This document shows positions 3,789 to 30,075 of a DNA stretch of 64,000 bases, piece by piece; positions within the stretch are counted from its first letter, which is position 1, and every line of letters starts with the position of its first letter. The stretch is from an uncultured Alphaproteobacteria bacterium (lineage in GTDB: Bacteria; Pseudomonadota; Alphaproteobacteria; ATCC43930; CGMCC-115725). The position numbers and the translations under genes are program-made. The stretch lies in assembly GCA_963735445.1 (NCBI GenBank), contig CAVTLC010000048.1, positions 5,721 through 69,720 on the forward strand. Direction: 5' to 3'. A model generated the notes under the pieces. It worked only from the letters and a program-made list of their open reading frames with translations. It was not told the origin of the DNA and did no database searches.

Positions 3789-4934
3789 TCAATAGTCGCC
3801 TCCGAGGCCATCATGATCCCGCCACTTGTTGTGCCCGCATTCTCGCCTTCGTATGCTGGCCGCATCGCGTTCTTGTAGAATCACCGTCTGACGAGCCCGC
3901 GGATGAGCTGCGCGAGTTCGGGGTGCGAGAACAGCGACGCTGTATTTCAGTTCCACGAGGCCGCGGCCACCGGCGCCGAGCTTTTCGGCCCCACAGCGAT
4001 CGTCCAGGATACTCGACAGAGCCTCAACCCATTCGGTGTGCGTCGTTGCTGCGAGGCCGAATTCGGCTTGCGCCAGAATGTCTTTGTTCATTCCCACCGG
4101 CGACGCCACGCAGGGACGTCCGGCAGCCATGTATTGCAGCATCTTAAAGCTGCACTTGCCGCGCTCCCACGGGCCGTCCGCGAGCGGCATGACGCCAATC
4201 GTGAGCGAGCCCAGAAACTCGTCCTCGACGGCAGCCGACCACGGAACGTAACGGACCGGCAAACCGGGAAGCCGCGGCGGTCGCTCGCTGCACACGGCGA
4301 TTGACACCGCGGGGAAGCGGCGGGTCACCTCGGCCAGCGCTGGTGCTATATGCTCGAGATACCGCAAGTTGCCAAAGGAGCCGATCCAGCCGATGCATGG
4401 CAGTTCAGGAAGCGGTTGAACATGATACGATTCGGTGTCAACCGGCGTCGGCAAAACCTCGACCCTTGTGTTCCATTTCTGCCACGCCTCGGCAAGCCAA
4501 TTGTTCCCGACGACGACAAGATCGGCTCGCTCCGCGAGGTGTTTGGCGGCCCACCCATCGCGGAACAAATGGATGGCATCGTCGACGTCGATCAGCCGCG
4601 GGCGGCGTGTCAAACCTTCGAGGGTGTACAGGGTCGAGACCATCTCGCGGTGCAAGAGGGTGATATCGGCGGCCCATCCGGCGTAGATCTGAGGCAGGCG
4701 CTGCGTCAGCGACCCGAGCAGCCAAGCCGGGCGTGCCCATTGCTTTTCGGGAGGATAGGAGCCGAGGCTCGGGCTGAGCTCGACGACATCAATGCCCCTT
4801 TGCGCCAACAGCGGGATGTATTGCCGCACGCGGAAGCGCGCCGAAGGGGCTTTGGCGCCGCCGGTAAAGGCCGCCAACCGCAACCCCGGCAATGCGGCGG
4901 GAGGTTTGCCGATCCCCGCGGATGGTCGCGGCAT
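3789..4934 (-). CDS. glycosyltransferase family 4 (GT-B, group 1)
   Basis: 381-aa ORF with GT4-like architecture and a C-terminal sugar-donor motif region (GVMPLADGPWERGKCSFKMLQYMAAGRPCVASPVG). The last ~40 codons run antisense into the IS remnant, so the native C-terminus may be altered. Confidence 0.8.
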   Translation of the reverse strand: MPRPSAGIGKPPAALPGLRLAAFTGGAKAPSARFRVRQYIPLLAQRGIDVVELSPSLGSYPPEKQWARPAWLLGSLTQRLPQIYAGWAADITLLHREMVSTLYTLEGLTRRPRLIDVDDAIHLFRDGWAAKHLAERADLVVVGNNWLAEAWQKWNTRVEVLPTPVDTESYHVQPLPELPCIGWIGSFGNLRYLEHIAPALAEVTRRFPAVSIAVCSERPPRLPGLPVRYVPWSAAVEDEFLGSLTIGVMPLADGPWERGKCSFKMLQYMAAGRPCVASPVGMNKDILAQAEFGLAATTHTEWVEALSSILDDRCGAEKLGAGGRGLVELKYSVAVLAPRTRAAHPRARQTVILQERDAASIRRRECGHNKWRDHDGLGGDY

Positions 4935-5173
4935 TTGCCCTTACCGTTGCTGCTTGTGTTCAGCGAGACCGATAGCAGCCGGAAAGGATTCTGTTAAGCC
5001 GGTTGCGGCGGCAACCGGGATCTTTAGCCGCGCGTGACAACAGCGACATCACCGCGAATACGCGGGACGGCGTTAAGGGCAAATCAACCGGCGCTGCAAC
5101 GGGCGCCGACCGATGCTTACGAGAGCGTCGGCCGGTTCTGGTCTCAACAATCGGCCGGCGCGTCGTGCTGCTG

Positions 5174-6562
5174 TCAATCGTTGGAGACGTCCGGGTCCCA
5201 GCGGCCGAACACCCCGATGCATCCGAACGGGCAGCCAACGATCGCGTTGTTCGCCGGCATCGGCACAAACACCCAATTATTGGCCGCATTGGCGGCGACC
5301 GAGTGCGATGTTCCGCTCGGGTGCCCCGGCGGCGGGCCGAGCAGCGGCGAGACCCCCGGCACATTGAAGGTGGGCACGATCTGGTCGAGGTACTGGCTCG
5401 AGGCATCGATCACGCCGAGCAGTCCGGCGCCTTGATCGGTCGTCGAGAGCGCGCCGGTCGTCCCCTTTATCGGGTGGGGCGAGTAGGGCGCGTTCGAGGA
5501 GCCGGTATAGAAGTGATTGTCGCCGGAATTGTACCAAACTTCGTCCGACGATCCGACGCCCGGCACGAATGTATACGCGCCGTTGGTGGCCATGATGACC
5601 TGCGCGGGGCTGGCGGTATAATAATCGGTAGGCGTCCAGACATTCCCGATTTGGTCGTAAACGGTGTTGCAGCCGATCAGGAACGTCTCGTTCGGACCCA
5701 AGGAGAGCCCGGCTGGCCCGCAAACCGGCACTAGGAACTCGGCATCGGCGAGACCGGTTTTCGGATTGAGACGATAGATCGCTCCGGTCGGGCCCGGCGC
5801 CGCGGTCGTGCCTGAAACCGAGGGGACGGCGACGTAAAAGCGTTGGGTTCCCGGATCCCAAATCGGCTGCTCGATGCCATTGGTGACATAGCTAAAGACG
5901 ATCTGGCTGCCTTTTGTCAGCGTGCAATTGGTTCCGACATTAATAAAGGTGACGAACGGGGGATCGTCGGCGTTGTTTGCGACGGCCAGAATCCGGTCTT
6001 GCGGGTCGAAAGCCATTTCGTCAGCCCGGTTTACACCACCGGTCTTGAGATCGCTGACCTGCGCACCCGATGGCAGCGCGAAAGAGACAACGCGGCTCGG
6101 CCCGTCGCCGGCAAAGAGACAGGTTCCCGATCCGTCGGTCGTAACCCCGTTTGGACCAGAAATATTGTTGTTGACGGCGGTCCCGGCTGCGTTGAGCTTC
6201 ACCCCGGCAAAACGCGGCGATGCGGTGATCTGCCTGACAAAGACCCCGGTACTGGCATCGACATCGTCGACCGCGGCGTTCGACCGATCGCCGAGGTAGT
6301 AATGGTGGTTCGTTTGGTCGACCCAGCTGATATCAAACCCGTACATGCCATTGGTCGCGTTTGTGGGGGCTACCGGGACCGGGACCGTAAACAGCAGTCG
6401 CACCGGACCCGTGGTTTCCTGAGTAGCGCCCTGCGCCCAGGCGCTGGCCGCACCGAGCAGCAAGACCGGGGCGGCCGCCGCGATCGCCGCCCGCGCGCGG
6501 CCCTGCTTTTTGACGAAACTGCATAAATGCTTTAAGCGCCGAAACATCGATCGTCCTCCCAC
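5174..6562 (-). CDS. exported beta-propeller-like protein of unknown function
   Basis: 462-aa ORF. N-terminal signal peptide (AAAPVLLLGAASAWAQG). Gly/Asn/Thr/Val-rich repeats consistent with a beta-propeller. Family not recognised. Confidence 0.65.
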   Translation of the reverse strand: MGGRSMFRRLKHLCSFVKKQGRARAAIAAAAPVLLLGAASAWAQGATQETTGPVRLLFTVPVPVAPTNATNGMYGFDISWVDQTNHHYYLGDRSNAAVDDVDASTGVFVRQITASPRFAGVKLNAAGTAVNNNISGPNGVTTDGSGTCLFAGDGPSRVVSFALPSGAQVSDLKTGGVNRADEMAFDPQDRILAVANNADDPPFVTFINVGTNCTLTKGSQIVFSYVTNGIEQPIWDPGTQRFYVAVPSVSGTTAAPGPTGAIYRLNPKTGLADAEFLVPVCGPAGLSLGPNETFLIGCNTVYDQIGNVWTPTDYYTASPAQVIMATNGAYTFVPGVGSSDEVWYNSGDNHFYTGSSNAPYSPHPIKGTTGALSTTDQGAGLLGVIDASSQYLDQIVPTFNVPGVSPLLGPPPGHPSGTSHSVAANAANNWVFVPMPANNAIVGCPFGCIGVFGRWDPDVSND

Positions 6563-7047
6563 CCTTCCTTCATTTGCCGCGCTGGTTGACCAGCCGACCT
6601 TGAACCATTCCCAGGCCGCGAGATGTTGTCAAACTAAATTTCTACCGCCGATAGGGCTCAAGCCGGTCCAAGGTCGGCCGATCCACCCAATGACCGGGCG
6701 CTCGGGGGGGGGTGGGGGACCCGTCGGTAAACGCGGCACGCTGCACCGCCGCGGGCGTCCCCTCAGATCTCGTCGGCCGAAGCTGGGCGTGATCCACGGT
6801 TGCGGCCGTTTTAAAAAAGACCCAAGCGGGCCAATAGCGCGCGTGGCGAATACAGCCACCACAGCGTCCCCCCGAGGGGAAATACGCCAATATCTCTTTG
6901 AGTTGCTGCGCGTCTTCGCCCACCCATTGACCGAGAACCGGTTCGATCTGTGTCTTGGAGATGACGCAGCCGCGGCCGAGGCGACGCGGGCAGTGCCGGC
7001 GATACGGCAAGATCGCCCCCCGCGATTGCGATCGGGCGTTGCCGGAG

Positions 7048-9153
7048 TTATTTGGCTAAATGCTCGCTGCTCTCTGTCTGCTGGTTCAGACGATGCGTTG
7101 CGAACGTGGGAAGACGTCGCAACTCGGTGGTGACTTTTCTTATCGGGGCCGTGAGGCGCCAACTTCTCGAACATTTGAGCTCGTCTATCGCCCGCGTCAA
7201 CGACGCTACCTCTTTCTCGCGCTCGGCGAGCCGCAACGCAAATTCGGCCCGTTCTTTCACGATCGTCTCGATCTCGCGCTCGCGCTCGGACAGCCGCTCG
7301 GCGCGGAAACGCGCGTTGCCTGCGGCGCGAATGCTGTCGGCTGCCTCACACAGCAAATTGAGCGCCATTCGAGCCTCAGCCGAGGGCAGCAGCGGCTTCG
7401 CGTCCAACGCGCGGGCAAAATCCGCCACCGCCCCCACCGGGTTGTCCTGGCGGGACCGCGCCACGCCGCGCTGGGCAAACGCACGTGCCACGGTCGCGGG
7501 TTCTAGCTCGGTAAATTCAAGTTCGGGCGGCAGTTTGTTGGTCGCGGCGAGAATTCGATCAAATACCGCCTCGGCGCCGGCGCTGTCACCCGCGATTAGC
7601 GCGGCGATGCCGTCGTTCAGCACGGCCTGCCAGTAAATCGCGGTTTGCGCCACGACCCCTAACCGCATCGCCCCGGCGATCGCGACGTATGCCGCGCGAT
7701 AAAGACGGCGCGCGCCAGCTGGGTCGCCGCGCCCGTTCAGCTGCAGCATGCCGACAAAGTGCAAGCTGAAGGGCAGCCAGTAAGGAAGCTTGACAGGCCA
7801 ATCGGCGAGATCAGTGACCTCTGCGAGGAGGGCCGGGACCCGTTCCGGCTCGGCAAAACTCAACCTGTAGTCTTGCTGCAACAGCTCCTCGGCGGTCGCA
7901 AACACCGCTTCTGCGCGCGGCCAATCTCCCCGTGATACGTAGTGATCGAGCAGGCGGTAGACGGCGCCGTGCCGGACATCGGAGCGCAAAGGCTCGCGAT
8001 CCGCCGCCAGCGCTTCGAGATACGTGGCGTAGGCCGCATAATCCGGTTCGAGGGTCGCCTCCGTTACAATCGGATCATCGCTCGCAAACGCGATCAGCCG
8101 ATGCCCGAAGGGGATAATTTTTGTATGCGCAAAACCCGCCCCGTGAAGTGCGGCGCGCAACGCATCAGCGCTGAAGATCTGCCGATGAAACCCGGGACAA
8201 AGCGCCGACATGATCACAATCGCCGGAGCGCTGTGGCCGGGCGCAACGCACCCGGCATCCGGAGTGGTCAGGGCCAACACACCGCACGGCTGCAGATGAC
8301 CGCGCAACATGCGCAGAAAGCGCGCCGGATCTTCGACGTGCTCGATCACCTCGGAACAATAGAGCAGATCTGCGCGCATATTTTCAGGTAGCGGCGCATC
8401 GCTCAGATAGGCCGGCAGGATCTCGACACCGAGGGCGCGCGCTCCGTCCTGCGCATACGCCGACGGATCGAGCCCGAGCGATCGCGCTCCAAATATGCGG
8501 CGTGCGAAGTCGACCGTGTAACCAAAGCCGCATCCAGCATCGACAAAACTCTGAACGGGTCGCAATCGATGCACCGCCACCAGCGGCCGTATCATGAATT
8601 CGATCCCGGCCCAGAACTGGGCGTGCAGGCGGGCGTAATTGGCGTTTCCGAAATCTTCTTCGTATCTCGGTTGAATGAAGGGATGCGGGAACACGCAGCC
8701 GCAATCCGGGCAACCGTAAAAATTGAGAGCCTGACTGACGCTCGCACCGCCATCGGATGCGTCGAGATCCCAAGAACATCTGACCTTGAAGGGTTTCGGC
8801 CCGAAGGCATCGCAGACCGGGCAGACGGTCTCGACCGGCTCCTTGAGCCCCCAGCGCAACAGTCCCGGAGCGGCGGGAGCTGCTTCGGCGACCGAGGGTG
8901 TTGCCGCCGCCGGACGCTCGCCGGCGTACATGACGGTTGCGGCCTCCATCAGCAGCCGGTGAGCATGATTGCGGGCACCCTCGGTTGCGCTCGGCTTTGC
9001 CATGAAATCGGCAAAGGCGCCGATCGCCTCCGGATAATGACCGAGCTGCAGCATCGCCACTGCCCGTTCAAACGCGACGCGCGCCGCGATCAAAGGAGGC
9101 GCGAACTCCCAAATCGCCGCCAATCTCGCGCGGGCGCGCGGAAATCGTGTCAA
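7048..9153 (-). CDS. class I SAM-dependent methyltransferase with Cys4 zinc ribbon, helical (TPR-like) region and C-terminal coiled coil
   Basis: Zinc ribbon CPVCDAFG...CPDCGCVF. SAM motif I VDAGCGFGYT, then LLYCSEVIEHVEDP. C-terminal heptad-rich stretch REREIETIVKERAEFALRLAEREKEVASLTRAIDELK followed by SRSWRLTAPIRK. The ORF start overlaps the upstream paralog by 86 nt; an internal ATG at 9054 would remove the overlap. Confidence 0.8.
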   Translation of the reverse strand: MTRFPRARARLAAIWEFAPPLIAARVAFERAVAMLQLGHYPEAIGAFADFMAKPSATEGARNHAHRLLMEAATVMYAGERPAAATPSVAEAAPAAPGLLRWGLKEPVETVCPVCDAFGPKPFKVRCSWDLDASDGGASVSQALNFYGCPDCGCVFPHPFIQPRYEEDFGNANYARLHAQFWAGIEFMIRPLVAVHRLRPVQSFVDAGCGFGYTVDFARRIFGARSLGLDPSAYAQDGARALGVEILPAYLSDAPLPENMRADLLYCSEVIEHVEDPARFLRMLRGHLQPCGVLALTTPDAGCVAPGHSAPAIVIMSALCPGFHRQIFSADALRAALHGAGFAHTKIIPFGHRLIAFASDDPIVTEATLEPDYAAYATYLEALAADREPLRSDVRHGAVYRLLDHYVSRGDWPRAEAVFATAEELLQQDYRLSFAEPERVPALLAEVTDLADWPVKLPYWLPFSLHFVGMLQLNGRGDPAGARRLYRAAYVAIAGAMRLGVVAQTAIYWQAVLNDGIAALIAGDSAGAEAVFDRILAATNKLPPELEFTELEPATVARAFAQRGVARSRQDNPVGAVADFARALDAKPLLPSAEARMALNLLCEAADSIRAAGNARFRAERLSEREREIETIVKERAEFALRLAEREKEVASLTRAIDELKCSRSWRLTAPIRKVTTELRRLPTFATHRLNQQTESSEHLAK

Positions 9154-10459
9154 AGACCGCGATGGCCTCTTCCCGTCGCGCGGCCGCCAAGAGCGCGCAG
9201 CCGTGTTCCATAGCGGCGCGCCATACCAGCGAGGCAGCCTCTTGGCTGTGCTCCGGGGCGATGGCTACCGCGTGCTTCAGCACCTCTAAGGACGAAGCGA
9301 AAAGATCAACGGGATCGCGTGACCCGTCACCGTTGGCGCGCTCAGCCATGGCCCAGTAAAACAAAAATGGCCCGAGGCAAAAGGGTGCTGTGTCGCAATA
9401 CTCCGAGAGGTCGCGTGCAGCCAATACGCGCTCGGCGACGGCAGCGGTGTCGAGCGGGTCGTAGCCGTAGGCCTGTTGGACGAGCGTCGCGAACGCCTCC
9501 GCGTGCGGCAATGCCTGCTGCGTTTGGCCGGCATTGACCAGCTCCTTGGCCGCCCGGAACCGGAAACCCAGCGCAAGGTCGATCGGCTGATCCCGCAGTT
9601 CGGCACGCTGCAAGACATAATCACGATATCGCCTGCTCGGCACCTCCCTGGCGGGCCAGACGCGCAGCACCGCTTCGGTGGCAAACGCAACCAGACGCTC
9701 ATTTTCCGCCTCCACCGATACATCGGTAAACCCGGCCGCGCGGAGCAAAGTGTCCAGGGCAGCTGCGGAAAAGATGAGCTTGTGACCCCCCGGCGAAAGG
9801 GCCGCGAGCAACAATGTCGGATCGCTCTCGGGGCGCACGAATTCCGCCCGCGGGGTTGTCAGGACGAGCGTCCCTCCGGGCGTTAGATGAGCGCGCAGTT
9901 CAGCGATGAAAGCGGCCGGATCAGGCACATGCTCAACGACTTCGGAGGACAGTACGATGTCAAAGCGCTTGTCGCCCAGTTCGGCGACATCGGTCAGCAA
10001 CGCCGTGTAAATCGGCGCTGCGAGTAGATCACGTCCCAAGCGGCCATACAGGGAGGGCTCGACCCCGGCGACGGCGGCCCCGGTCATTCTCCGCCAATAA
10101 TCGAGCGTAAACCCGAAACCACAGCGGACATCGAGGAGACTGGGGGTGACGCCATCGGTTCGAACCCGTTCGATCGGCAGCACCATCGAGTCGATGCTGG
10201 CGCCGACGTGCAGGTAGTGGCGCCAGTGGTAAGGGTCGAGTTCGTCCTGGTCGGCATATTCGTTAAAGTGTTCGGTCATCACGTTCAGACTACCGCAGGC
10301 ATTGCAGCGGGAATAGCTGACAAGCTCACCGAGGTCGTAAGGGTTCGGAGCGGTGAGCACGCGTTCTTGGTGGCCGACGACACCGCATGCCCGACAATAC
10401 GCCTCGCTCACAATTTCCTTATTGCGGTACCAGGTCACCAGCGATCGGAATGTGTCCAC
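9068..10459 (-). CDS. class I SAM-dependent methyltransferase with N-terminal zinc ribbon and C-terminal helical domain (paralog of 7048..9153)
   Basis: Zinc ribbon CRACG...CNACGS. SAM motif I LDVRCGFGFT, then IVLSSEVVEHVPDP and GGTLVLTTP. Domain order matches the downstream paralog, but the coiled-coil tail is missing. Confidence 0.8.
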   Translation of the reverse strand: MDTFRSLVTWYRNKEIVSEAYCRACGVVGHQERVLTAPNPYDLGELVSYSRCNACGSLNVMTEHFNEYADQDELDPYHWRHYLHVGASIDSMVLPIERVRTDGVTPSLLDVRCGFGFTLDYWRRMTGAAVAGVEPSLYGRLGRDLLAAPIYTALLTDVAELGDKRFDIVLSSEVVEHVPDPAAFIAELRAHLTPGGTLVLTTPRAEFVRPESDPTLLLAALSPGGHKLIFSAAALDTLLRAAGFTDVSVEAENERLVAFATEAVLRVWPAREVPSRRYRDYVLQRAELRDQPIDLALGFRFRAAKELVNAGQTQQALPHAEAFATLVQQAYGYDPLDTAAVAERVLAARDLSEYCDTAPFCLGPFLFYWAMAERANGDGSRDPVDLFASSLEVLKHAVAIAPEHSQEAASLVWRAAMEHGCALLAAARREEAIAVFDTISARPREIGGDLGVRASFDRGARRV

Positions 10460-10606
10460 TTTGCCTGCCTTCTCGACCGGGGCTACGCTTTGGCTAATGA
10501 ATTAACAGGGATAGTCCGGCTTGGTAGAAGCAGAGAGCCAAGGCCGAAGCGCTGCGCCGGGAAGCAGCATGCTTGCGCGTGTGCAACTCTGGACTAGCCG
10601 TTGCAT

Positions 10607-10760
10607 TCATTCCGGAAAGTGTACGCGCCCCGGCAGATAAGAGCCGAGGCGCGGCGCCAACTCGACGAGATCACACCGCACGTGAAGGCGCGCCGGGGGC
10701 GCCTTGGTCCCGCCGGTCAAGGCCGCCACACGCAGCGCCGGCGCGTCGGCCGCACCCTCT
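10607..10760 (-). pseudogene. relic 5' end of a second GT4 gene, paralogous to 3789..4934
   Basis: Translation ALRVAALTGGTKAPPARLHVRCDLVELAPRLGSYLPGRV aligns with the GT4 N-terminus GLRLAAFTGGAKAPSARFRVRQ[YIPLLAQRGI]DVVELSPSLGSYPPEK. The DNA is clearly similar to 4750-4900 apart from an internal deletion of about 30 nt. The relic stops after about 45 codons. Confidence 0.6.
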
Positions 10761-10866
10761 CCGCCTGCCCGTCGCCGGGTATCGCCCAGGACGAATCCGC
10801 GCACCAAATTCAAGCCTTCGTTCGCCGCCTCGTTTCGGTCAGCCAACCGCGCTTGGCAAAGCTTAA

Positions 10867-12024
10867 TTATATCACGCCGATTCTGGCAAGCATCGCCGTG
10901 GGCGAACGCAGGTCGCGCAGCGACCCGCGCGCCCGAAAATATCCGAGGATCTCGCGTTCGTACGCCGCGTCCTCGCCGACCCATTCGCCGACAACCTCGT
11001 CGATCTGCGTGACAAGATATTGGCCGCGATAAACCAAGTCCTTCTTCAAGAACGGAAAACCGGTCTCTCGCAGCAGAATCAGGTTGGCGGCGTTCATCGT
11101 GTTCGATCTGCCGAGGCTTTCAGTAACGTAATGCCGCAGAAAACTGCGCATCGGCGCATTCTCGCCGGCTTCTGCAAACGTAATCTGCTGAATCTTGTCG
11201 CGCAAGGTTTCGTATTCGAGCGGACCCAACGCGCCCAGCAACCGGTCGACGGTCTCGCTCAGCGACCCGTGGAGCATGATGTCGATGACGCCGCCCTGGG
11301 TGTACAAAAGGCGCGGCGTGATGCCCATTCCGATACAATAGCGAGAGAGCCCGATTTCTCCGTGCTTGATGCAATGCAGGCGATAGGAGAGCGGCCGATA
11401 ATTTTGCCAGTATTCCTGGAAGGCGGGGTCGGCAAAGAGCCGGCCGGAGACCGCGAAAAACCAGCTCTGCAGATGGTAAACCGGGGAAAAGGTCTCGGTG
11501 ACGCCGATAAAGTCGTCATCGAGCTGCCTGAGGCGTTCGAGCGATTGCCGCAGCGCCGATGGCCGGACAAAAATGCTGTCGTTACAATATATGACTTGTC
11601 CGATGTCGTGGTCTTCACCATCCATTTTAGAGAGCGTTTGGGTCCCCCATTTGTAGCCGCCGAAATCACGCCCGCCGCGCGGCCGCTCGATCACGCTGTG
11701 ACAGTAAGGCAAAAAATTGCTGGAGATTTCGGGTGATAAATCACCGTTGTTGACCAGGATCACATTATAGCCGGCTTCTTTCAGACACGACAGGAATGCG
11801 AGCAAGTTCTGAGAGACGCGCCTTCCCTGGGCAATCGCAAAGATGCACCACAGCCCGGTCGGCTGGGTCGCAGCGAGATGAACCCGAGAGCTAGCCGCCG
11901 ATTTCCACCGCGGCCTTTCAATCAGAAGGAAGACAAGCAGATAATATATCAGAAGGATGCCCCTCAACGGCAATTCGACACCAAGCCTCAGACAGAAGTA
12001 GACAACGCGTAGGAACGCCGTCAT
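10867..12024 (-). CDS. rhamnan-synthesis-F (RgpF) family glycosyltransferase-like protein
   Basis: 385-aa ORF with an N-terminal TM region. Motifs RGGRDFGGYKWG, IYCNDSIFVRPS, FIGVTETFSPVYHLQSWFFAVS and HGEIGLSRY match my recollection of RgpF-family conserved blocks. Confidence 0.7.
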   Translation of the reverse strand: MTAFLRVVYFCLRLGVELPLRGILLIYYLLVFLLIERPRWKSAASSRVHLAATQPTGLWCIFAIAQGRRVSQNLLAFLSCLKEAGYNVILVNNGDLSPEISSNFLPYCHSVIERPRGGRDFGGYKWGTQTLSKMDGEDHDIGQVIYCNDSIFVRPSALRQSLERLRQLDDDFIGVTETFSPVYHLQSWFFAVSGRLFADPAFQEYWQNYRPLSYRLHCIKHGEIGLSRYCIGMGITPRLLYTQGGVIDIMLHGSLSETVDRLLGALGPLEYETLRDKIQQITFAEAGENAPMRSFLRHYVTESLGRSNTMNAANLILLRETGFPFLKKDLVYRGQYLVTQIDEVVGEWVGEDAAYEREILGYFRARGSLRDLRSPTAMLARIGVI

Positions 12025-12065
12025 GCACGAAGCCGTCGCAAGGCTGCTAGTTCTGACCCTGGACG

Positions 12066-12467
12066 TTATGGCCGTACGATGGTCGTGTGAATGTTCCCAC
12101 TTGATAACTCCGGATCACGCCCAGCGTGGTTGCCAACAAGCCGCGGTAATCGAGCTGCAAGCTGGCTGACCTCAAGCCACCCCGCGAACCCCGTCTCCCA
12201 GCCCTCGTCGTTGGTGCGCGCCGTCAACTCCGAGACATTGTCGACCGGCGAGTAGGCCTCGATCCCGCAGAGCTTGCGGAAGTCATTGACGGCATGGCTG
12301 CAATTCCGGGCGCTCCTGCCGACCCCCAATAGAAACAACCGCCCGCGGCGTGCCCGTAATCCGGCTAGTTCCGTCGCGAGCTTTTCGATCGCAACAACAT
12401 CGATCTCGGTCGCTATCCGCTCGACAGAGGCAAAGAGTTGCTTCGCATGTCCGTTCATCGTGATCAC
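12066..12467 (-). pseudogene. truncated SIS-domain sugar isomerase (GmhA-like) gene fragment
   Basis: LFLLGVGRSARNCSHAVNDFRKLCGIEAYSPVDNVSELTARTNDEGWETGFAGWLEVSQL matches the N-terminal half of SIS proteins. The conserved GGSA is changed to GRSA, the second half (VFSVGGG...) is absent in all frames, and the tail is unrelated sequence. Confidence 0.6.
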
Positions 12468-12993
12468 TATCGTTGCGGAACCGCTAGGCAGCGATACCGC
12501 ATGTTTGATGGTGATGCAATCGCGGCCCCCGCTTTCCCCGCCGGCATCTTGGGCGAATCGCGCCGCGACGGCGGCGTACTTGACGCGACCCTAGCTCTTC
12601 GGGGATGGAGGGCCGGTTTGATTTGCACCCGGTAAACCGACCGCATCGGGTCGCGGCAATACGGAACATCGATGCCGGTTATCGGATTTCCGGGTTGACA
12701 CATCTCGGCCTCATATCGCCGCTCGCGGTTTCAAGGTCATCGGCTATGATTCGGATCGTGGGCTGAGCAACGTCGAGAAGCGCAGGTTCTGCCTGTGCGC
12801 TGCACAAGCATGACGATCGCGATAGATCTGCCGTGAGGTATCGTAGCCTGCGCGGTTGCTTCCCAAAATCGCAGGAGTGAGCCGACAAGGCGCGGTGGAC
12901 GCACCATAGCGGCTATGTTATAGCGCCGAGGCGCCGCGGTTCGACGGCCGTAACAAGACCGAGACGCACCATGATGATCAGGGCAGTAGCCGA
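12468..12993. promoter_or_regulatory. divergent intergenic region separating the leftward glycan genes from wzm-wzt
   Basis: About 525 bp with no convincing ORF between divergently oriented gene blocks. Promoters are inferred from position only; I identified no motif. Confidence 0.3.
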
Positions 12994-13848
12994 GTGACAC
13001 AACTGGAAGCTGTTTCTGAGCCTGCACCCGAGACAATTATTGATTTCCCGGCACCGCCAACCCGCGTCGGTTCCGCTGTGGCAGACCTCCGCGATGGTTT
13101 TGAGCAGAATTGGCTGTGGATTCGGCTGGCGCACCAGGATATGCGGCTGCGCTATCGTGGTTCGATGCTCGGACCGTTTTGGCAGACGATCACGACCGTT
13201 GTTTTGATCGGCTCGATGGGTTTCATCTACGCCAAGCTGTTCCATGTCGAACTCAAAGACTACATGCCGCTGCTGACTGTCGGGCTGATACTGTGGAATT
13301 TCGTTGCCGGAATGATCACCGAAGGCTGCGGCACTTTCGACGCAGTGCGCGGGCTAATCCAGCAGGTCAAGCTGCCGTATTCGCTGCACGCCTTTCGCCT
13401 CGTCTATCGCAATTTCCTAATCCTGGCTCACAGCTTTGTCATCATCCCGATCGTACTGATCATCTTCCCGCACCCGATCCAATGGCTTCGGCTGGTTGAG
13501 ATCGTCCCCGGTATGGTGTTGGCAATGATCAATGGGGTTGCCATCAGCCTACTGTTGGGCTCGATTTGCGCGCGCTTCCGCGACGTCCCGCCGATCGTCG
13601 CCAGTATCGTTCAGGTCGTGTTCTTTGTGACGCCGATCGTCTGGCCGCCTAGCGCGCTGGGCTCCAACCAGTGGTGGGCGGTGCTGAACCCGCTTTATAC
13701 AGTGATCGACGTGATGCGCTCGCCGATGCTCGGGATGCCGACAGCGCCGCATTCCTGGGCAATCCTGATAATCGTCACACTGGTCAATTGTGCGGTCAGT
13801 TTCATGTTCTTCAGTCGCTTCCGCTCGCGCATCGCCTTTTGGGTTTGA
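12994..13848 (+). CDS. wzm: ABC-2 type polysaccharide export permease (Wzm/TagG/KpsM family)
   Basis: 284-aa ORF with a GTG start. Family N-terminal signature LAHQDMRLRYRGSMLGPFWQTI and about 6 TM segments. Lies directly upstream of the ATPase gene. Confidence 0.85.
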   Translation: MTQLEAVSEPAPETIIDFPAPPTRVGSAVADLRDGFEQNWLWIRLAHQDMRLRYRGSMLGPFWQTITTVVLIGSMGFIYAKLFHVELKDYMPLLTVGLILWNFVAGMITEGCGTFDAVRGLIQQVKLPYSLHAFRLVYRNFLILAHSFVIIPIVLIIFPHPIQWLRLVEIVPGMVLAMINGVAISLLLGSICARFRDVPPIVASIVQVVFFVTPIVWPPSALGSNQWWAVLNPLYTVIDVMRSPMLGMPTAPHSWAILIIVTLVNCAVSFMFFSRFRSRIAFWV

Positions 13849-13869: not shown

Positions 13870-14655
13870 GTGTCGTTTGTGCGTCTAGAAGACGTATCGG
13901 TGGAGTTTCCGATATATCAGGGCAGCAGCCGCTCGCTGAAAAAAGTGCTGCTTGCCTCATCCACTCGCGGGAATTTGGCGCGCGATGCCCGAGACCGCGT
14001 AAACGTCCGCGCCCTGAGCGGGATCAACTTTGAACTGCGCAGTGGTGATCGGTTTGGCCTCGTCGGTGCAAACGGCGCCGGGAAGACGACATTACTCAAA
14101 GTGCTCGCCGGCGTATTCGAGCCCACCGGCGGTAGGATAATTTCGTTCGGCCAAGTCACATCTCTGCTCGATACCAGCGTCGGGTTGAACATCGATGCGA
14201 CCGGGCACGAGAATATCATTCTGCGTGGCATGTACATGGGGATACACCCGCGCGAAATGGCGGAGCGCGCGGCATCGATCGCCGAGTTTACCGAGCTTGG
14301 CGACTACCTTGACATGCCGGTGCGAACATATTCCGCGGGTATGATGATTCGCTTGGCCTTTGCTATTTCAACGTGCGTTGCCCCCGATATCCTGATCATG
14401 GACGAGTGGCTCACCGCCGGCGATGCTCGGTTCCTCGCTAAGGCGCAGCGCCGCATCGAAGAGTTCGTTCGCTATTCGAGCATCCTGGTGCTCGCCTCCC
14501 ATTCGATGCAGCTGGTGGAACAATGGTGCAGTCGCGGGGTGTTGCTGCATCACGGCCGAATATTGACGATTGGCCCGATCAAGGAGATTGTCGCTGCCTA
14601 TCAAGAGTTGACCCAGGAGCTCACCGCTATGGAGGCTGTGGCGGCGGCCGAGTGA
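13870..14655 (+). CDS. wzt: polysaccharide export ABC transporter ATP-binding protein (Wzt/TagH/KpsT family), NBD only
   Basis: 261 aa. Walker A GANGAGKTTLLKVLAG, signature YSAGMMIRLAF, Walker B ILIMDEW. No C-terminal carbohydrate-binding extension. Confidence 0.9.
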   Translation: MSFVRLEDVSVEFPIYQGSSRSLKKVLLASSTRGNLARDARDRVNVRALSGINFELRSGDRFGLVGANGAGKTTLLKVLAGVFEPTGGRIISFGQVTSLLDTSVGLNIDATGHENIILRGMYMGIHPREMAERAASIAEFTELGDYLDMPVRTYSAGMMIRLAFAISTCVAPDILIMDEWLTAGDARFLAKAQRRIEEFVRYSSILVLASHSMQLVEQWCSRGVLLHHGRILTIGPIKEIVAAYQELTQELTAMEAVAAAE

Positions 14656-15173
14656 CCGGTTGGGCGCAACGAAACCATCGCGTGCCGACGCGCTTCAAGA
14701 ATTGGTGACCTCTGATACTCAGCAGCGGCAGAACCGGCATCGGCTGAAACCAGCTCTCGCGTAACCAGACACCAATGATCAGTCAGCCAGTTAACTGCAG
14801 TTGCGCAAAGCGACGAATCACCGGCAATTTTGTCGGCTGGATCTGCAACATGACTGTGGCGCGGCCGATCCCCCGCGTGGGATTCTGAAAATTTTTGACA
14901 CGCGGCGGACGGCGACCCCGGACCCGGGATATTCGCGATCGATCAAGGCCGACCACAGCCAGGCACCTGTACCTTTTAGGCTGCCGATCGCTGCCGAGCG
15001 GCGATGCGGCTCAAGCCGGATTGCACATATTGACATGGCCACAACCGCACCGGATGTTATCCGAGCTCCGCGGCCGCTGATGTGCCTGTGGAGTAAGGGG
15101 GTCGATTATCGCCGCCGCGTTCCCGAGGCGGTCGCTATCAACCCAATCAGGTGAGACTTGCGAAGGCACCGGC

Positions 15174-15832
15174 TTGGCTGAAATCAACCTGCTGCGCCGA
15201 TATCCGCGCGCAAAGCGCAACATCGGAATGCGAACAGTCGCACAAAGCGCTGAGAACATCCGTATCGCTCGTGAGTATGGACGCGAATATTTCGACGGGT
15301 CGCGCGACACCGGATACGGCGGTTACCGTTATGATGGGCGATGGATCCCGATTGCCGAGGATATAATCGAGCACTTCCGGCTCAAACCGGGCGATCGGGT
15401 GCTCGAGTCGGCTGCGGCAAAGGTTTTCTCGTCAAAGACCTGCTTAAGGTGAGCCAAGGAATTGAGGCTTTCGGGCTCGATATTTCCGAATACGCGTTGA
15501 TGCATTGCGAACCTGAGGTCATCGGCCGGCTGCACCTTGGCGACTGTGTCAAGCTGCCGTTTCCAGACAACAGCTTTGCCGCGACCATCGCGATCAACGT
15601 CGTCCACAATCTTGAACGCGCCGATTGCATTGCGGCTGTCAAGGAGATCGAACGGCTGTCGCCTGGAAGGGCCTACATTCAAGTCGATTCCTATCGCACG
15701 CCGGAGGAAAGGCAGCTTTTTCTCAGTTGGGTTCTAACCGCAAAGACGCATCACGATCCCGTAGGCTGGCGCCAACTGTACGAGGAAGCGGGTTACACGG
15801 GCGATTACTATTGGACAATTATCGAGGCATGA
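15174..15832 (+). pseudogene. class I SAM-dependent methyltransferase with one frameshift (possibly a sequencing artefact)
   Basis: ORFs 15174..15452 and 15341..15832 join as ...KPGDRVLE|VGCGKGFLVKDL... The DNA reads ctcgag-tcggctgc where gag gtc ggc tgc is expected, so one G is missing near 15406. Confidence 0.8.
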
Positions 15833-15845
15833 GAGGCTCGGAGCG

Positions 15846-16667
15846 ATGACGCCAACCGGCAACCGGTTCGATACGATACAGGCGCGCGAGCGATGCCGGC
15901 GCTATCGTCGCCGCATCCTCGACATCTCGCAGCAGGTGCAGGCGCTCCATATCGGATCGGCTTATTCCTGCACCGAGATCGTAGACTCCTTTTATCATGG
16001 GCTGATGCGACGTAATCCGGACGGCTCCTCGCCCGACACTTTTTGATGTCGAAAGGGCATGGCTGCATGATCCAGTACGTCATCCTCGAGGAGGACGGGA
16101 TCCTGAGCCGCGCAGATCTCGATGGCTACTGCAAACCGGAAGGACATCTCGGCGTCCACCCCACTATGGCATTCCCGGCATCGCGGCAGCCACCGGATCG
16201 CTCGGCCATGGGCTCTCGATGGCGTGCGGCATGGCACTCGCAGAGCGCGGCCGCAGGACCGGCGGCACAATCTATGCCGTGCTCAGCGATGGCGAAGTAC
16301 AAGAAGGCTCAACCTGGGAAGCCGTACTGATGGCGTCGTCGCTGCGTCTCGACAATCTCGTCGCCGCAATCGACAACAACGATCTGCAGAGCCTCGGTCG
16401 GACGTCGGTAACTCATCCGAGCCTCTATCCGTTGCTCGATAAATTTGCGGCGTTTGGCTGGGAAACAGCAGAGGTCGCGGCCACGACTCGGACGCAATCT
16501 TTTCCGCTGTCGCGAACCGGCGCGGCGGCCGCCCCTTCATGTTGGTTGCAAAGACCACCAAGGGCAAGGGCGTCAGCTATATGGAAAACGTGTCGATCTG
16601 GCATTACCGCTCGCCAACTCCGGACGAATACCGCCGTGCGATTGACGAGTTGGAGACGGCGCGATGA
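15846..16667 (+). pseudogene. transketolase N-terminal (TPP-binding) subunit with three frameshifts
   Basis: The pieces read HIGSAYSCTEIV..., LMSKGHGCMIQYV..., HYGIPGIAAATGSLGHGLSMACGMA...LSDGEVQEGSTWEA... and GHDSDAIFSAV...LVAKTTKGKGVSYMEN. Frame switches lie at a T5 run (about 16040), a C4 run (about 16160) and about 16475. The stop overlaps the next start (ATGA at 16664). Confidence 0.8.
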
Positions 16668-17581
16668 GAAACATGTTCGCCGAAGCGCTGTATCGCGAAG
16701 CGACCCGAAACCCGGACATCTATGTGGTCGTCGCCGACATCTCGCCGGTCGGCAATATGGCGAAGTTTAGTTCGGAGTACCCCGAGCGCTTTATCAATGT
16801 GGGAGTTGCCGAACAGAGCATGATTGGTATCTGCGCCGGGCTCGCCCTCAAAGGCTGCCAGCCCTTCGCCTACACGATTGCCACCTTCTCGCTCTATCGA
16901 CCGTTCGAGATGGTGCGCGACGATCTGTGTTACCAGAACCTGCCGGTGACGGTTGTCGGCATGGGCGCCGGGGTGATTTATTCGGACCATGGCGGGACCC
17001 ATCATGCGATGGAGGACGTCGCAATCGCCGGCGCTATCCCGAATATGCAGATTATTGCGCCATGCGATCCAGCGGAGGTCGCCGAGGCTACGCGATGGTG
17101 CGCCCGTCAAAAAAACGGGCCGGTCTATCTCCGCCTTGGCAAGTCGAACGAACCCGACCTGACCAAGAATGCCGAACCGTGGGTGTTTGGCAAATTGCGC
17201 CGCTTGCGGAGCCGGTAGAGATGTCGCAATCATGTCCTATGGCGTCTTGACCAGCATCGCAACCGATCTTGCCGATCGCTTTGCAGCGGCGGGAAAATCG
17301 GCATCGGTATTCTCCTGCCACACCGTGAAGCCGCTCGACCGTGACGGGATTATCGCCGCAATGAAAGATCATGACCACGTCGTCGTGATCGAGGAGCATG
17401 TGCCGCAGGGCGGTCTCGCGGCGCAGACGAAGCAGTTGGCCTGGGACATCGGGGCACATTGCCGGCTCGACACCTTCACGCTGCAGGACCGCTTTACCAT
17501 AATTTCGGCCGTCATCCCGACATGCTGGCGGCGCACGGGCTCAGCCTCTCGGAGATTGTGAAGCGGGTCGGGCTGGACTAG
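16664..17581 (+). pseudogene. transketolase C-terminal (pyrimidine-binding) subunit with two frameshifts
   Basis: FINVGVAEQSMIGICAGLALKG...YSDHGGTHHAMEDVAI..., then AGRDVAIMSYGVLT..., then HNFGRHPDMLAAHGLSLSEIVKRVGLD*. Frame switches near 17205 and 17500. Confidence 0.8.
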
Positions 17582-17586
17582 CGGCG

Positions 17587-18956
17587 ATGGGAGAGGGGCA
17601 CAACGATAGGCTTGCGATCCACGGCGGCGAGCCCGTTCGCCGAAAGCGGATGCCGCCGCGTTTGGCGCTCGGCGACGACGAAGTGGGCATGATCCAGCGG
17701 GTTATCGCATACTACCGCGATAACGAGATCGACCCGGGTTACCAGGGGCCGTTCGAAAGCTCTACACTGACGGTTTTGTCGGAATGATGGGAGGCGGCTA
17801 TGCCGATGCCGTCGCCACCGGAACCGCTTCGCTGTTTGTAGCCTTGGCCGCGCTCGATCTTCCCAAAGGCAGCCAAGTGCTGATCTCGCCGATTACCGAT
17901 CCGGGTTCGCTGAGCGCCATCATCCCAAACGGGTTAACGCCAAAGCTGTGCGACAGCAAGCCCGGTAGCTACAACATCGGAGTCGAGCAGGTAGTGGCGC
18001 GGCTGACACCCGAGGTGTCGGCGATTTGTCTGGTGCATGCCGCCGGGCAGGCGGCCGAGGCTGACAAGATTGTGGAGGCGGCCCATGCCCGCGGGGTGCG
18101 GGTGCTCGACGACCCGAGTCAGGCGCACGGCGCCAAGATAATGGGCCGCCCGGTCGGCACCTTCGGCGACATTGCCGCGTTCTCGACGATGTATCGCAAG
18201 GCGCACATGATCGGCCCATCAGGGGGTGTGGTCTATTGCCGCGATCTCGACCTTTTTCGCCGGGTGCTTGCCCATGCCGACCGGGGCAAGCCGCGCTGGC
18301 GTGATGATTTCAGTGATCGCGACCCATCGACCTATCTGTTCCCGGCACTTAATCACCATACCGACGAGATTTCGTGCGCGATCGGGGTCGCCTCGTTGGG
18401 GCGTCTCGAAAATACGATTACCCGGCGGCTCTCTTACGTGTCGGATGTTGTAGCCGGTCTCGCCGAAAGTGCTCGGATCTGCCGACCCTATCCGATGAGC
18501 CCAAACAATTCTCCATTCTTCTTTCCAATCATCGTCGACCTTGACCGCATCAGCTGCAGCAAGATCGAGTTCACCGAAGCGGTTCTGAAGGAGGGAATCG
18601 ATCTTAACCCGCACTACCGCTTTGTCGTGGACGAGTGGCCCTGGGTGCAGCCCTATCTTGCCGATGAATTTAAGACCGACAATGCCCGCAATATTCGCGA
18701 TCGTTCCTTTTGCCTTTATCTGAATGAGAACTACGGCGAGGCTGAAGCCAACGACACCGTCGAAGCGATTCTTAAGGTCGAGCGCCATTTCGGTCTTGAT
18801 TGGCGGGTTAATTCGGTCCTCTCGCTCTCGAGGATTCAGTCAACGTTAAGCTCCCGAGCCTGGGCGGGGAGCCTGGACGTCGAGGGTATGCCCTCGCGTC
18901 TGGCGCTCGGAATGTCGAAGCGCGCATGGCGCAGCCACGGTGGTTTACCGCGATAG
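17587..18956 (+). pseudogene. DegT/DnrJ/EryC1/StrS-family sugar aminotransferase with one frameshift; the 3' end runs into a relic
   Basis: IHGGEPVRRKRMPPRLALGDDEV...DPGYQGPFE then (K)LYTDGFVGMMGGGYADAVATGTASL... The shift lies at the run ttcgaaagctc (AAA where AAAA is expected, about 17757). The last ~30 codons belong to the duplicated 5' relic. Confidence 0.8.
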
Positions 18957-18990
18957 CGAGATCGACCCGGGTTTACCTACAGAGGTAAAC
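18856..18990 (+). pseudogene. relic 5' end of a second degT-like gene
   Basis: DNA at 18860-18985 resembles 17625-17745, for example taccgcgata(a/g)cgagatcgacccgggtt. Translation with shifts gives LGGEP..MPSRLALG...VVYRDSEIDPGLP, against HGGEPVRRKRMPPRLALG...AYYRDNEIDPGYQ. Confidence 0.55.
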
Positions 18991-26469: not shown

Positions 26470-27725
26470 CTAAAGTGGGCGGACTAATGCATGGCGCTTG
26501 CGGCCGGCGCTGAGCTTCACGGCGCCATCCGGGCCGAGATCGGCGAGGCCAACGAGTCCGCTTCTCATCCTTGATGACCGTATCGTTGATGCGGGCACCG
26601 CCGCCGCGGATCAGCCGCCGCGCCTCGCTGTTCGATGCGGCAAGCCCAGCGCGGCTAAGCAATTCAAAGATCGCAATTCCGCGTTCGAACAAGTCGCGCG
26701 GCAACGCGGTTTGCGGCAGGTCTTCGCCGCTGCCCGCCTTGCTCGAAAACGGCGCGAGCGGTCTCTGCTGCAGCCTCGGCCGCCTCGCGGCCGTGAGCCA
26801 GCGCGGTCGCCTCGGTGGCGAGTACCTTTTTCGCCTCGTTGATGTCGCCGCCTGTCAACGCCTCAAGGCGCGATATCACCTCCAGCGGCAGCTCAGTGAA
26901 CAGGCGCAAAAAACGGCCGACATCGGCGTCTTCGGTGTTGCGCCAGAATTGCCAGTATTCGTAGGGGGACAATCGCTCGGCGTTGAGCCATACCGCACCC
27001 TGCGCGGTCTTTCCCATCTTGTCGCCGGATGCGGTCGTCAAAAGCGGTGTCGTCAGCCCGTAGAGAGTGCGCCCGTCCAACCGCCGCCCGAGTTCGACGC
27101 CGCCGACAATGTTGCCCCACTGGTCAGAACCGCCGATCTGCACTTCGCAACCAAAGCGCCTCCCGAGCTCGACAAAGTCGTAGGCCTGCAGAATCGGATA
27201 ATTGAATTCGAGAAACGAGAGCGGCTGTTCACGCTCAAGCCGCAAGCGAATGCTGTCCTGCGTCAGCATGCGGTTGACCGAAAAATAGCGGCCGACCTCC
27301 CGAAGCAGCGGAATATAGCGCAGCTCATCAAGCCAGTCGGCATTGTTGACCATGACGGCGTCGGTCGGACCGTCGCCGAAGACTATGAATTTGGCGAAGA
27401 CTTTCCGGATGCCTGCCATGTTACGAGCAATCTCGGCATCGTCGAGCAAAGGCCGCGCGGTGTCGCGGAAAGACGGATCGCCGATCCTGGTTGTGCCGCC
27501 GCCCATTAGCACAATGGGCTTATGCCCGCAGCGCTGCCATAGGCGCAACAGCATGATCGACACGAGGCTGCCGACGTGCAGACTGTCGGCGGTGCAGTCA
27601 TAACCGACATATGCGGTGACGCGATCTTCGTTAAGCCGCTCGTCAAGCGCCTCCAAATCGGTGCATTGATGGACAAAGCCGCGCTCGATCGCAGCCTTAA
27701 GAAATGGGGAGCGAGGGGTGGACAT
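26470..27725 (-). pseudogene. tyrS: tyrosine--tRNA ligase with two apparent +1 frameshifts (probably sequence errors)
   Basis: [15 protein letters not shown] (HIGH-type motif), DKMGKTAQG (KMSKS-type motif) and YPILQAYDF...[11 protein letters not shown]. The C-terminal S4 domain (SNSEARRLIRGGGARINDTVI) and the final GLADLGPDGAVKLSAGRKRHALVRPL* lie in other frames. One shift is at ggcgggcagc (an extra G). Confidence 0.9.
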
Positions 27726-28885
27726 AGTGGCGTCATCTAGCACGGCAGCACCCAGCGGGTCACCACCATCCGAACGGCACGCGGCTCGGCCTGTCACGTC
27801 GGCGGAGGTAGGGGCATTGAGGCGCGCGATCGGGTTGATGAGCGGCACCTCGCTCGATGGCATCGACGTCGCGATGATCGAAACCGATGGTTGCGCCGAC
27901 ATCATACCAGGACCGGCGATGACCATCGCCTACCCCGATGCCTTTCGTGAAAAGCTTCGGGGCGTGTTGGGTGGGATCGGCGCGATTGAAGCGGTAGAAG
28001 GCGAACTGACGCAGTTGCACGCCGAAGCCATCGAACTGTTCCGAAAGTCCTATAAGGGGATCACGGCTGATATTGTCGGCATGCACGGGCACACAATCCT
28101 GCATCGCCCCGCCGAACGGCGCACGTGGCAATTGGGCGATGGCGCCGCACTCGCGGAGCGGCTTGGCGTTGACGTGGTCGCGGATTTTCGCTCCGCCGAT
28201 GTCGCGGCGGGCGGCGAGGGCGCGCCATTGGCGCCGCTGTTTCACGCCGCTCTCGCCGCCGCGCTGCCAAAGCCGGTCGCCGTCCTCAATCTTGGCGGCG
28301 TTGCAAACGTGACCTGGATCGGTGAAGCAGGTGCGGTGCTAGCCTTCGACACCGGTCCCGGCAATGCGTTGATCGACGACTGGGTCCGGCGGCACACTGG
28401 CGCTTCTGCCGACTTCGATGGCGCGCTGGCCAGCGTCGGCCGGGCTTCCGAGCCGCATGTCGGACGGTTTCTCGAGCATCCGTATTTTGCAGCGGCTGCC
28501 GCCCAAATCGCTCGATCGCGACGATTTCCAGGAGTGCACGCCCGTAGGACTATCGGTCGAAGACGGTGCAGCGACCCTGACCGAGATGACAGCTGCCGCC
28601 GTCGCCGCCGCGAGGTGCTATTTCCCGGCTCCGGTCCACGAATGGTTAGTTACCGGCGGGGGCCGGCACAACCCGGCTCTAATGGCCGCGCTCGCCCGCC
28701 GCGTTAACGCACCGGTTCGCGCGGTCGAGAGAGTTGGCTGGAATGGCGACGCACTCGAAGCGCAGGCTTTCGCGTACCTCGCGGTGCGCTCGGCTGCGGG
28801 TTTGCCGCTCACCTTGCCGACCACAACCGGCGTCCCGCGGCCAATGCCCGGCGGCCGACTATTTCGCTCCCGGGCCCGTAGCTGA
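27718..28885 (+). pseudogene. anmK: anhydro-N-acetylmuramic acid kinase with one apparent frameshift; the true start is probably downstream of 27718
   Basis: [20 protein letters not shown] ... FDTGPGNALIDDW ... HPYF| then PPKSLDRDDF ... LVTGGGRHNPALMAAL in a second frame (shift near 28495). Confidence 0.85.
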
Positions 28886-30075
28886 TTATTGAGCCGGAAC
28901 CAGTTCGGGTGTCTGAGCCTTGGTGAACGCCGGCATCACCTCCTTGCCAAAGCGTTCGAGCTGCTCGAGGCAAGCGGATTTAGGGACACCCACGCTAAGG
29001 CTGACGGAGACGCGATCGAGTCCGGGGTAACGTTTTTCGAGGGCCTTGAGATGCTCGACTATCTGCTCGGGCGAACCACACAACACGCCACCATTTGCGA
29101 TTGCATCCTCGATGCGCGGCAACTTCGCGCTCGGTGCACGTTTTGGGTCCCGCATGATCTCTATCTGCTCATCGGTTAAAGCGCGGACCAGCCGCAACTC
29201 GCCAAACATCTTCATGTTCTCTTCGTAGTACTTTCCTGCCTCACGGATTCCTTCTTCGCGACTATTCGCGATAAAGAAATGGAAACCGAAGCATAGGCGT
29301 TCGCCCAATTCGAGGTGCTTGCCGACTCGTGCATGCGCTTCCTGCCATGCCAGCACGGTCTTGTGCATTGCTCCGCCTTCGGCTGAACCGCCCCCGATCA
29401 ATCCCTTGATCCCATGCTTTGCCATGAAATCGAGCGCGCGCTCGCTACCACCCTGGATCGGCTGCCAGCATTCGACCGGCAACCGCAGCGGCCGCGGTAC
29501 CAGGGTTAATTCTTCAAGTTCGTAGCCGCGATAAGGGACTTGTGGCGGCAACGTGTAATGCTTGCCCTTGTGCGAAAGGACTCGTTGTTGAACGCCTTAA
29601 AAATAATGTCGACTTGTTCCTCAAACAGCTCGCGATTGGCCGCCTGATCAAGCAAGGGCGAACCAAAGGTCTCGACCTCGCGGGTATGGTAACCGCGTCC
29701 AACACCAAAGGTGATACGACCGCCGCTCAGAATGTCGGCTGTCGCGTAATCCTCCGCGAGCCGCAGCGGGTGCCACATCGGGGTGATGTTAAAGCCGCAG
29801 CCAAGCCTGAGGCGTTTGGTAAGGTGCGCGAGATGCAGAGCCGTCATCAGGACGTTCGGAATGCACTCATAGCCTTCGCGCTGGAAATGGTGCTCGGCCA
29901 TCCAGAACGTATCGTAGCCGAGCTGATCCATCAGTTTCGCCATTGCCTCTGCCTTGTCGAAGACGGTGGCGAGATGTTCGTTGGGAAAACGGCGGTCATT
30001 CACCGGGATACCAGCGTAGCCGACGTTGTCCATATCGACATGGCCAGCAAACAGGCTGTCGAATTTGGTAATCAT
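28886..30075 (-). pseudogene. LLM-class (luciferase-like) flavin-dependent oxidoreductase with one frameshift
   Basis: FWMAEHHFQREGYECIPN...GVGRGYHTREVETFG...FNNESF| then SHKGKHYTLPPQVPYRGYE... The shift is at a T-run (tcctttcgcac, about 29577). Confidence 0.85.

Follow-up and report, generated by a model that had tools for sequence, protein, structure and literature searches.

The four genes at 15174-18956 of a 64,000-nucleotide stretch of DNA from an uncultured Alphaproteobacteria bacterium (the window) lie on the + strand behind the ABC exporter genes wzm and wzt. They code for a class I S-adenosylmethionine (SAM) methyltransferase (MT), the N- and C-terminal subunits of a split transketolase-like enzyme (TK-N and TK-C), and an aminotransferase of the DegT family. 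As they stand in this assembly, all four are interrupted by changes of reading frame, seven in total. The group adds a minimal, exporter-linked member to a type of sugar-tailoring cassette that is widespread and uncharacterised. The best explanation of the whole, which we regard as likely, is that a four-gene sugar-tailoring cassette, functional in nature, follows Wzm-Wzt and that its breaks are consensus errors. The seven breaks themselves are very probably errors of one base each in the consensus of a long-read metagenome-assembled genome (MAG), and the pathway would not have been killed by them.

Seven single-base breaks in four genes

In the window, MT, TK-N, TK-C and DegT are each split into short open reading frames (ORFs) across frames, and an exact-sequence look-up of the broken ORF products returned no record. 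With intact homologues from the same genus as tblastn queries, seven frame changes are found: three fall in TK-N, two in TK-C, and one each in MT and DegT. The same frames are tracked across the cassette by a codon-usage model trained on this genome. The alignment of the window with the DNA of the intact contig L109 (82.6% identity) gives the same count, and thus the seven apparent frameshifts reported in the initial annotation stand. In this alignment all seven are length differences of 1 nucleotide (nt) in coding regions, and codon-sized insertions or deletions (indels) do not occur.

One base is missing after 15406 in MT, after 16038, 16162 and 16477 in TK-N, after 17496 in TK-C and after 17755 in DegT, and at 17211, the site of the other TK-C break, there is one G too many. 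The MT break falls within the SAM-binding motif LDVGCGKG, of which VGCGKG begins at 15407, adjoining the break. The two TK-C breaks were placed against L109 and the ~97% identical L115. The DegT break, in which a run of four A is read as three, is also seen in alignment with L115-L117. These three contigs, whose DNA is about 97% identical to that of the window, confirm the last three breaks (17211, 17496 and 17755): as short-read contigs at ~97% nucleotide identity they are free of the three lesions that they span, and they belong to other genomes than the window's. Homopolymers account for some of the break sites only. Programmed frameshifting and phase variation were considered and rejected, the sites being seven, mostly outside homopolymers, of mixed direction and absent from near-identical relatives.

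Once the seven indels are followed, 1203 codons are read with 0 in-frame stops. The multiple stops in the corrected sequence by which the initial annotation would have recognised a true pseudogene cassette are thus not there. The ratio of nonsynonymous to synonymous substitution rates (dN/dS) against L109 is 0.05 for MT, 0.06 for TK-N, 0.10 for TK-C and 0.06 for DegT. With L115, the closest relative, the ratio is about 0.2, a value resting on very few differences. As a sequence-based measure, these ratios show strong purifying selection on the cassette codons.

At the 3' end of degT, the stop codon TAG of the relatives is TGG at 18801-18803, and the ORF gains 51 codons, up to 18956, in which no coding signal is found. 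The change of TAG to TGG could reflect either a genuine substitution or an erroneous base. The read-through tail (18804-18956, + strand) is probably non-coding spacer: the codon model loses its signal after about 18800, and the stop of the relatives lies at the position equal to 18801-18803. A short repeat of the degT 5' end is present 3' of degT, at 18856-18990. It is kept in L115 (about 1800-1930; ~97% identity over the aligned stretch) and, on this comparison, predates this genome and is not a private scar.

Frame breaks and sequencing technology

A scan of GTDB species genomes for TK-C homologues yielded 56 loci. Frame changes were counted with intact queries at 55 loci, in MT, TK-N, TK-C, DegT and SDR-B, a dTDP-glucose-4,6-dehydratase-like gene. 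The 14 loci from 'MFD...bin' long-read MAGs contain 33 frame changes in 53 kb, and 10 of them are affected. They include the same-genus relatives G005 and G008, which are MFD MAGs with 'contig_N' names, and one sibling MAG of this kind has 7 breaks in its own copy of the cassette. We take these MAGs to be long-read Microflora Danica assemblies made with nanopore reads. The 38 short-read or other loci show 0 frame changes in 128 kb and three further 'contig_N' or chromosome-level assemblies 0 in 11 kb, which makes 0 in 139 kb for all 41 non-MFD loci together. Consensus errors are the favoured explanation of the breaks because their pattern follows the sequencing project, not biology.

Intact counterparts of the whole arrangement are available. 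The order wzm-wzt-MT-TK-N-TK-C-DegT, in some cases with a SASA-domain gene included, is found with every gene intact in the JGI short-read contigs L109-L112 and L115-L116, in the Logan short-read contig L117 and in the ENA contig L118. In these contigs MT has 219 amino acids (aa), TK-N 274, TK-C 305 and DegT 405. The DegT proteins of the JGI and Logan contigs are 93-96% identical to that of the window and the ENA one 89%. When the longest DegT fragment was used as a protein query, numerous intact homologues of 405 aa came up, with 88-96% identity. The SASA-domain gene (389 aa, carbohydrate esterase-like) lies between wzt and MT in L109-L112, at 6195-7364. The corresponding region of the window, 14656-15173, is a 518-bp spacer in which no coding signal was found, and no homologue of the SASA gene was found in the genome. 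In L118 (399 kb) the genes wzm-wzt-MT-TK-N-TK-C-DegT form an island at 5626-11218 amid TetR, MFS, EcKL-like kinase and luciferase-like genes.

Frame breaks also occur across the assembly. Two sets of reference ORFs were compared with this genome by tblastn, one from 400 kb of G013, of the same genus, and the other from 400 kb of G025, a finished single-contig genome of another family. The G013 ORFs gave 256 orthologues over 240 kb, with 65 frame changes in 47 genes before filtering. G013 carries frame errors of its own, and a filter kept only the junctions at which both frames are closed in this genome. After it, 42 junctions in 37 genes remained (0.175 per kb). With the G025 reference the rate was 0.176 per kb, breaks being present in 8 of 44 genes. 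The assembly-wide rate is 0.18-0.27 breaks per kb, with 14-18% of conserved orthologues broken, and many of the broken genes share 80-95% protein identity with their orthologues. In the window itself, anmK (27718-28707 plus 28418-28885) is split between two frames, its Pfam profile being covered in two consecutive pieces, and a luciferase-like monooxygenase gene on the minus strand (29506-30075 plus 28886-29551) is likewise split. Breaks in conserved genes of the same-genus references were observed at the 5' end of TK-C in G005 (L011), at the 3' end of the dehydratase gene in G008 (L012) and in the dxr/cdsA region of G013.

The breaks of this assembly are clustered, and some genes contain three of them (for instance, at C54:44000-48300 and C43:179000-181900). 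Within the ~5% of the genome that was sampled, another stretch of 3.8 kb, C54:45712-48214, has 7 raw junctions, 5 of which remain after the filter. The codon-usage hidden Markov model (HMM) places the cassette in the top ~0.4% of genome windows. It is too noisy for genome-wide counts of frame switches, due to rRNA, short genes and shadow frames. Genome-wide counts of internal stops were dropped, since they are confounded by shadow-frame queries.

If the frameshifts were real, as the initial annotation considered, the window would hold a true pseudogene cassette, with four genes inactivated, the pathway dead and the exported glycan simplified by the lack of the modified sugar. We regard this as quite unlikely, in spite of several observations that weigh for it and against consensus errors. 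The density of breaks in the cassette, 1.8 per kb, is 7-10x the genome mean, and seven breaks in 3.8 kb are expected only 0.01-0.13 times per genome under a uniform Poisson model. The excess leaves room for real decay beyond noise. The stop codon of DegT is lost as well, and the rest of the usual 12-gene operon, described below, is missing from the genome. The consensus errors are deduced and not seen in reads, and we infer the long-read origin of the window's assembly from its relatives and its error profile. However, breaks of the same kind occur genome-wide, in conserved orthologues at 80-95% identity, and the genome has a cluster of equal density at another place. The breaks are thus not specific to this locus, and within the cassette they are found only in long-read MAG copies, among them the sibling with 7. 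Independent short-read assemblies contain the four-gene form, without the rest of the operon, in an intact state. Moreover, the lesions are 1-nt indels only, with no nonsense codons, no larger indels or deletions, and no relaxation of dN/dS (0.05-0.2). It would be very unusual for seven real frameshifts to come without any nonsense mutation, larger deletion or relaxation of constraint. Thus, the dead-pathway inference fails because the frameshifts track the assembly, and the reading of the breaks as consensus errors is the one followed here.

The lesson is mainly a cautionary one: clustered frameshifts in long-read MAGs can mimic pathway decay, and pseudogene calls in this assembly need read support. 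The comparison of assemblies from different technologies makes consensus errors very probable here even where reads are not at hand.

Gene identities and the larger operon

As the initial annotation proposed, the cassette lies behind an exporter pair, and Pfam domains support the identity that it gave to each of the four genes. The upstream genes wzm (12994-13848, + strand; ABC-2 permease of 284 aa, Pfam ABC2_membrane) and wzt (13870-14655, + strand; ABC ATPase of 261 aa, Pfam ABC_tran) are both intact, with 82% identity over the full length and 85% identity, respectively, to their L109 homologues. MT (15174-15832, + strand) is read in tblastn frame 3 and then 2, and is 81-91% identical at the aa level to the intact L109 MT. 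It matches Pfam Methyltransf_11/25 on 15341-15832 and, with a GxGxG SAM motif and a Methyltransf_11 score of 46.8 bits (cut-off 21.2), belongs to the class I SAM methyltransferases.

TK-N (15846-16667, + strand), the subunit with the thiamine diphosphate (ThDP)/PP domain, is read in frames 3, 2, 1 and 3, matches Transketolase_N on 16219-16770 and has 87-95% aa identity to its L109 homologue. TK-C (16664-17581, + strand), with the Pyr and C domains, is read in frames 2, 3 and 2 and matches Transket_pyr on 16664-17218 and Transketolase_C on 17169-17561. The two genes are joined as described in the initial annotation, by an ATGA overlap at 16664-16667 that couples the TK-N stop to the TK-C start. 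Even as fragments they score as members of the transketolase superfamily, with 41.8 bits for Transketolase_N (PF00456; gathering cut-off 22), 125.1 for Transket_pyr (PF02779; 27) and 62.1 for Transketolase_C (PF02780; 25.9).

The last gene (17587-18803, + strand) codes for a pyridoxal phosphate-dependent aminotransferase of the DegT/DnrJ/EryC1/StrS family, with homologues of 405 aa at 88-96% identity. The Pfam profile DegT_DnrJ_EryC1 (PF01041) matches 17784-18956 with 153 bits against a cut-off of 19.8. The Schiff-base lysine is kept, the lysine of FSTMYRKAH in the window protein being aligned with that of SFCQDK in 7L7X. The closest matches are nucleotide-sugar aminotransferases (ArnB, perosamine synthetase and PseC). 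None of the named NCBIfam equivalogs of sugar aminotransferases (PseC, ArnB, RfbH, WecE and DesI) is reached, the best being PseC with 118.9 bits against a cut-off of 423.5.

Most of the scanned loci carry MT, SDR-B, TK-N and TK-C in the same order, spacing and strand. DegT follows TK-C in about 21 of the scanned loci, and an RmlD-like reductase takes its place in several others. Neighbour clustering and Pfam domains define an operon of ~12 genes, in the order TAL_FSA, SDR, SDR, a PfkB + CTP_transf_like fusion (HldE-like), GFO_IDH_MocA, UDPG_MGDP_dh-type, SDR-A, MT, SDR-B, TK-N, TK-C, DegT or RmlD-like reductase, and Nudix. It is present in L056, L088, L094, L120 and some 25 further loci (positions 1-12500), often near carbamoyltransferase, acetyltransferase, radical SAM and Asn-synthase-like genes. 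No member of this operon scores above a curated NCBIfam cut-off. The carriers belong to the Alpha- and Betaproteobacteria, Nitrospirota, Verrucomicrobiota and Myxococcota, and include a SAR11 single-cell genome. Nothing specific on the cassette came from a literature search directed at O-antigen or capsule loci.

In terms of gene order and content, this comparison shows the window cassette to be the smallest, four-gene version of the block usually found at the 3' end of the ~12-gene operon. A search of the assembly, which is 94% complete, for the transaldolase (TAL), HldE-like, Gfo/Idh/MocA, UDP-glucose dehydrogenase (UGDH)-like, SDR-A and SDR-B genes found distant paralogues only and no orthologue. 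L109-L112 and L118 keep the minimal form whole and in linkage with wzm-wzt, and to judge from this it is not a relic.

The transketolase of the cassette is distinct from the enzyme of central metabolism. The genome has separate fused tkt-like loci on contigs C16 and C44. An intact homologue, from L056, scores far under the cut-off of 488 bits of the EC 2.2.1.1 equivalog NF004559 (215.6 for TK-N and 156.7 for TK-C). The canonical motifs GDG and GEDG(P/A)(T/S)HQ are not found in the window, which reads VLSDGE and SDHGGTHH; the 12-gene-operon form (L056) reads STLGATHH in place of SDHGGTHH. Judged by these features, the cassette transketolase is not the pentose-phosphate housekeeping enzyme, an outcome by which the initial annotation's view of it would have fallen had it been otherwise. 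The nearest solved structures, a moderate match, are those of the split transketolase of Carboxydothermus hydrogenoformans (6YAK for TK-N, E 2e-46; 6YAJ for TK-C, E 2e-51), which has the same split and the same domains. Compared with it, the cassette has SDG for GDG, SDHGGTHH for GEDGxSHQ and GKSG for GRSG. The corresponding residues of E. coli TktA would be H461, D469 and R520, which bind the acceptor hydroxyl and phosphate. The acceptor of the cassette enzyme is probably not an ordinary sugar phosphate, because the motifs that would match the acceptor and phosphate sites of TktA have been replaced.

Proposed chemistry and known systems

A specific chemistry of C2 transfer, transamination and methylation can be proposed only tentatively. 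The transketolase-like enzyme would move a C2 unit (glycolaldehyde or hydroxyacetyl) from a ketose or 2-oxoacid donor to the carbonyl of an oxidised, nucleotide-activated sugar. DegT would then turn the keto group into an amine; in loci lacking DegT, a reductase would yield a hydroxyl instead. The methyltransferase would add a methyl group, and the finished sugar would enter a polymer exported by Wzm-Wzt. That DegT alternates with the RmlD-like reductase in the position after TK-C is in keeping with a nucleotide-sugar ketone, which is either aminated or reduced. Two points tell against this proposal. The genes of this genome, with the other operon members missing, do not explain the source of the acceptor sugar or the oxidation step; and no glycosyltransferase is found near the L118 island, which allows for a product that is not part of a polymer.

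Rather doubtfully, wzm-wzt-MT-TK-N-TK-C-DegT, which in L118 is surrounded by non-glycan genes, may be a self-contained system, in which a transketolase relative with a remodelled acceptor site extends or branches, by carbon-carbon bonds, an activated sugar from general metabolism, such as the ADP-heptose of the core pathway. If so, transketolase chemistry of this kind would here be met for the first time in cell-surface glycans, and the four-gene form would represent the core catalytic unit of a cassette that hundreds of species carry. It is unlikely that the split transketolase is dedicated but catalytically ordinary, boosting together with the operon transaldolase the supply of sedoheptulose-7-phosphate for a heptose pathway, with MT and DegT acting later on a nucleotide heptose. 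The larger operon does pair the transketolase with a TAL_FSA protein and the PfkB/cytidylyltransferase-like (HldE-like) fusion, L120 has a SIS+CBS isomerase gene close by, and TK-N retains His residues aligned with those of 6YAK. However, MT-TK-N-TK-C-DegT stays tight and translationally coupled where TAL, kinase and nucleotidyltransferase are missing (the window, L109-L112 and L118), the canonical GEDG..HQ acceptor motif is replaced, and housekeeping-type tkt loci are already present in the genome.

Highly unlikely, in our judgement, is a small amino-polyol substituent, for which the transketolase would form a free ketose (phosphate), DegT would transaminate it and MT would methylate it, the amine being joined to the glycan, for instance as a uronic acid amide. 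The UDP-sugar dehydrogenase-like and asparagine-synthase-like amidotransferase genes around the block in L120 would suit such a product, as would the lack of a glycosyltransferase near the L118 island. The DegT/StrS family includes enzymes of non-nucleotide ketones, and scyllo-inosose aminotransferases are among the PDB matches. Nevertheless, the best DegT matches are the nucleotide-sugar aminotransferases named above, and the NDP-sugar reductase (RmlD-like) that holds the DegT position in DegT-less loci fits a nucleotide-sugar ketone. Whichever product is made, the intact sequences of L109 and L118 are ready templates for expression.

Among known systems, the ADP-/GDP-heptose pathway (GmhA, HldE/HddA, GmhB, HddC) resembles the larger operon, a sugar-activation operon of heptose style, which has the HldE-like PfkB + cytidylyltransferase-like fusion, with SIS isomerases nearby. 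These genes are not in the window cassette, and the sole HldE-like match of the genome is distant, on contig C20.

The initial annotation compared the cassette with YerE of yersiniose biosynthesis. As a functional concept the analogy holds: YerE, and ErwE for erwiniose, are ThDP enzymes that put a carbon branch on an activated keto sugar and belong to O-antigen loci (PMC12247030). With respect to the family it does not hold, since YerE belongs to the decarboxylase superfamily, of the acetohydroxyacid synthase (AHAS) type, with 2-oxoacid donors. The cassette enzyme is outside that family, and no Pfam match to the AHAS-type TPP_enzyme N, M or C domains was obtained on any cassette fragment of the window. 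If the transketolase-like enzyme acts on activated keto sugars, ThDP-dependent sugar branching in surface glycans would gain a further enzyme superfamily.

The statement that split transketolases lack a firmly assigned function agrees with the literature: according to a 2025 review, none of the split-gene transketolases in sugar pathways has been characterised in vitro (PMC12247030). Split-gene transketolases have been proposed to move a hydroxyacetyl group onto a keto sugar on the biosynthetic routes to miharamycin and amipurimycin in Streptomyces (PMC12247030). These systems likewise have a two-gene transketolase within a sugar-tailoring cluster and a proposed C2 transfer. They are actinomycete antibiotic clusters, and the 13 putative sequences of the mining study cited there all come from Streptomycetes (PMC12247030). 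Cassettes of the window type, in contrast, are found in surface-glycan loci of Gram-negative and other environmental bacteria, with MT and DegT as fixed partners, and are likened to the antibiotic systems by their architecture and proposed role.

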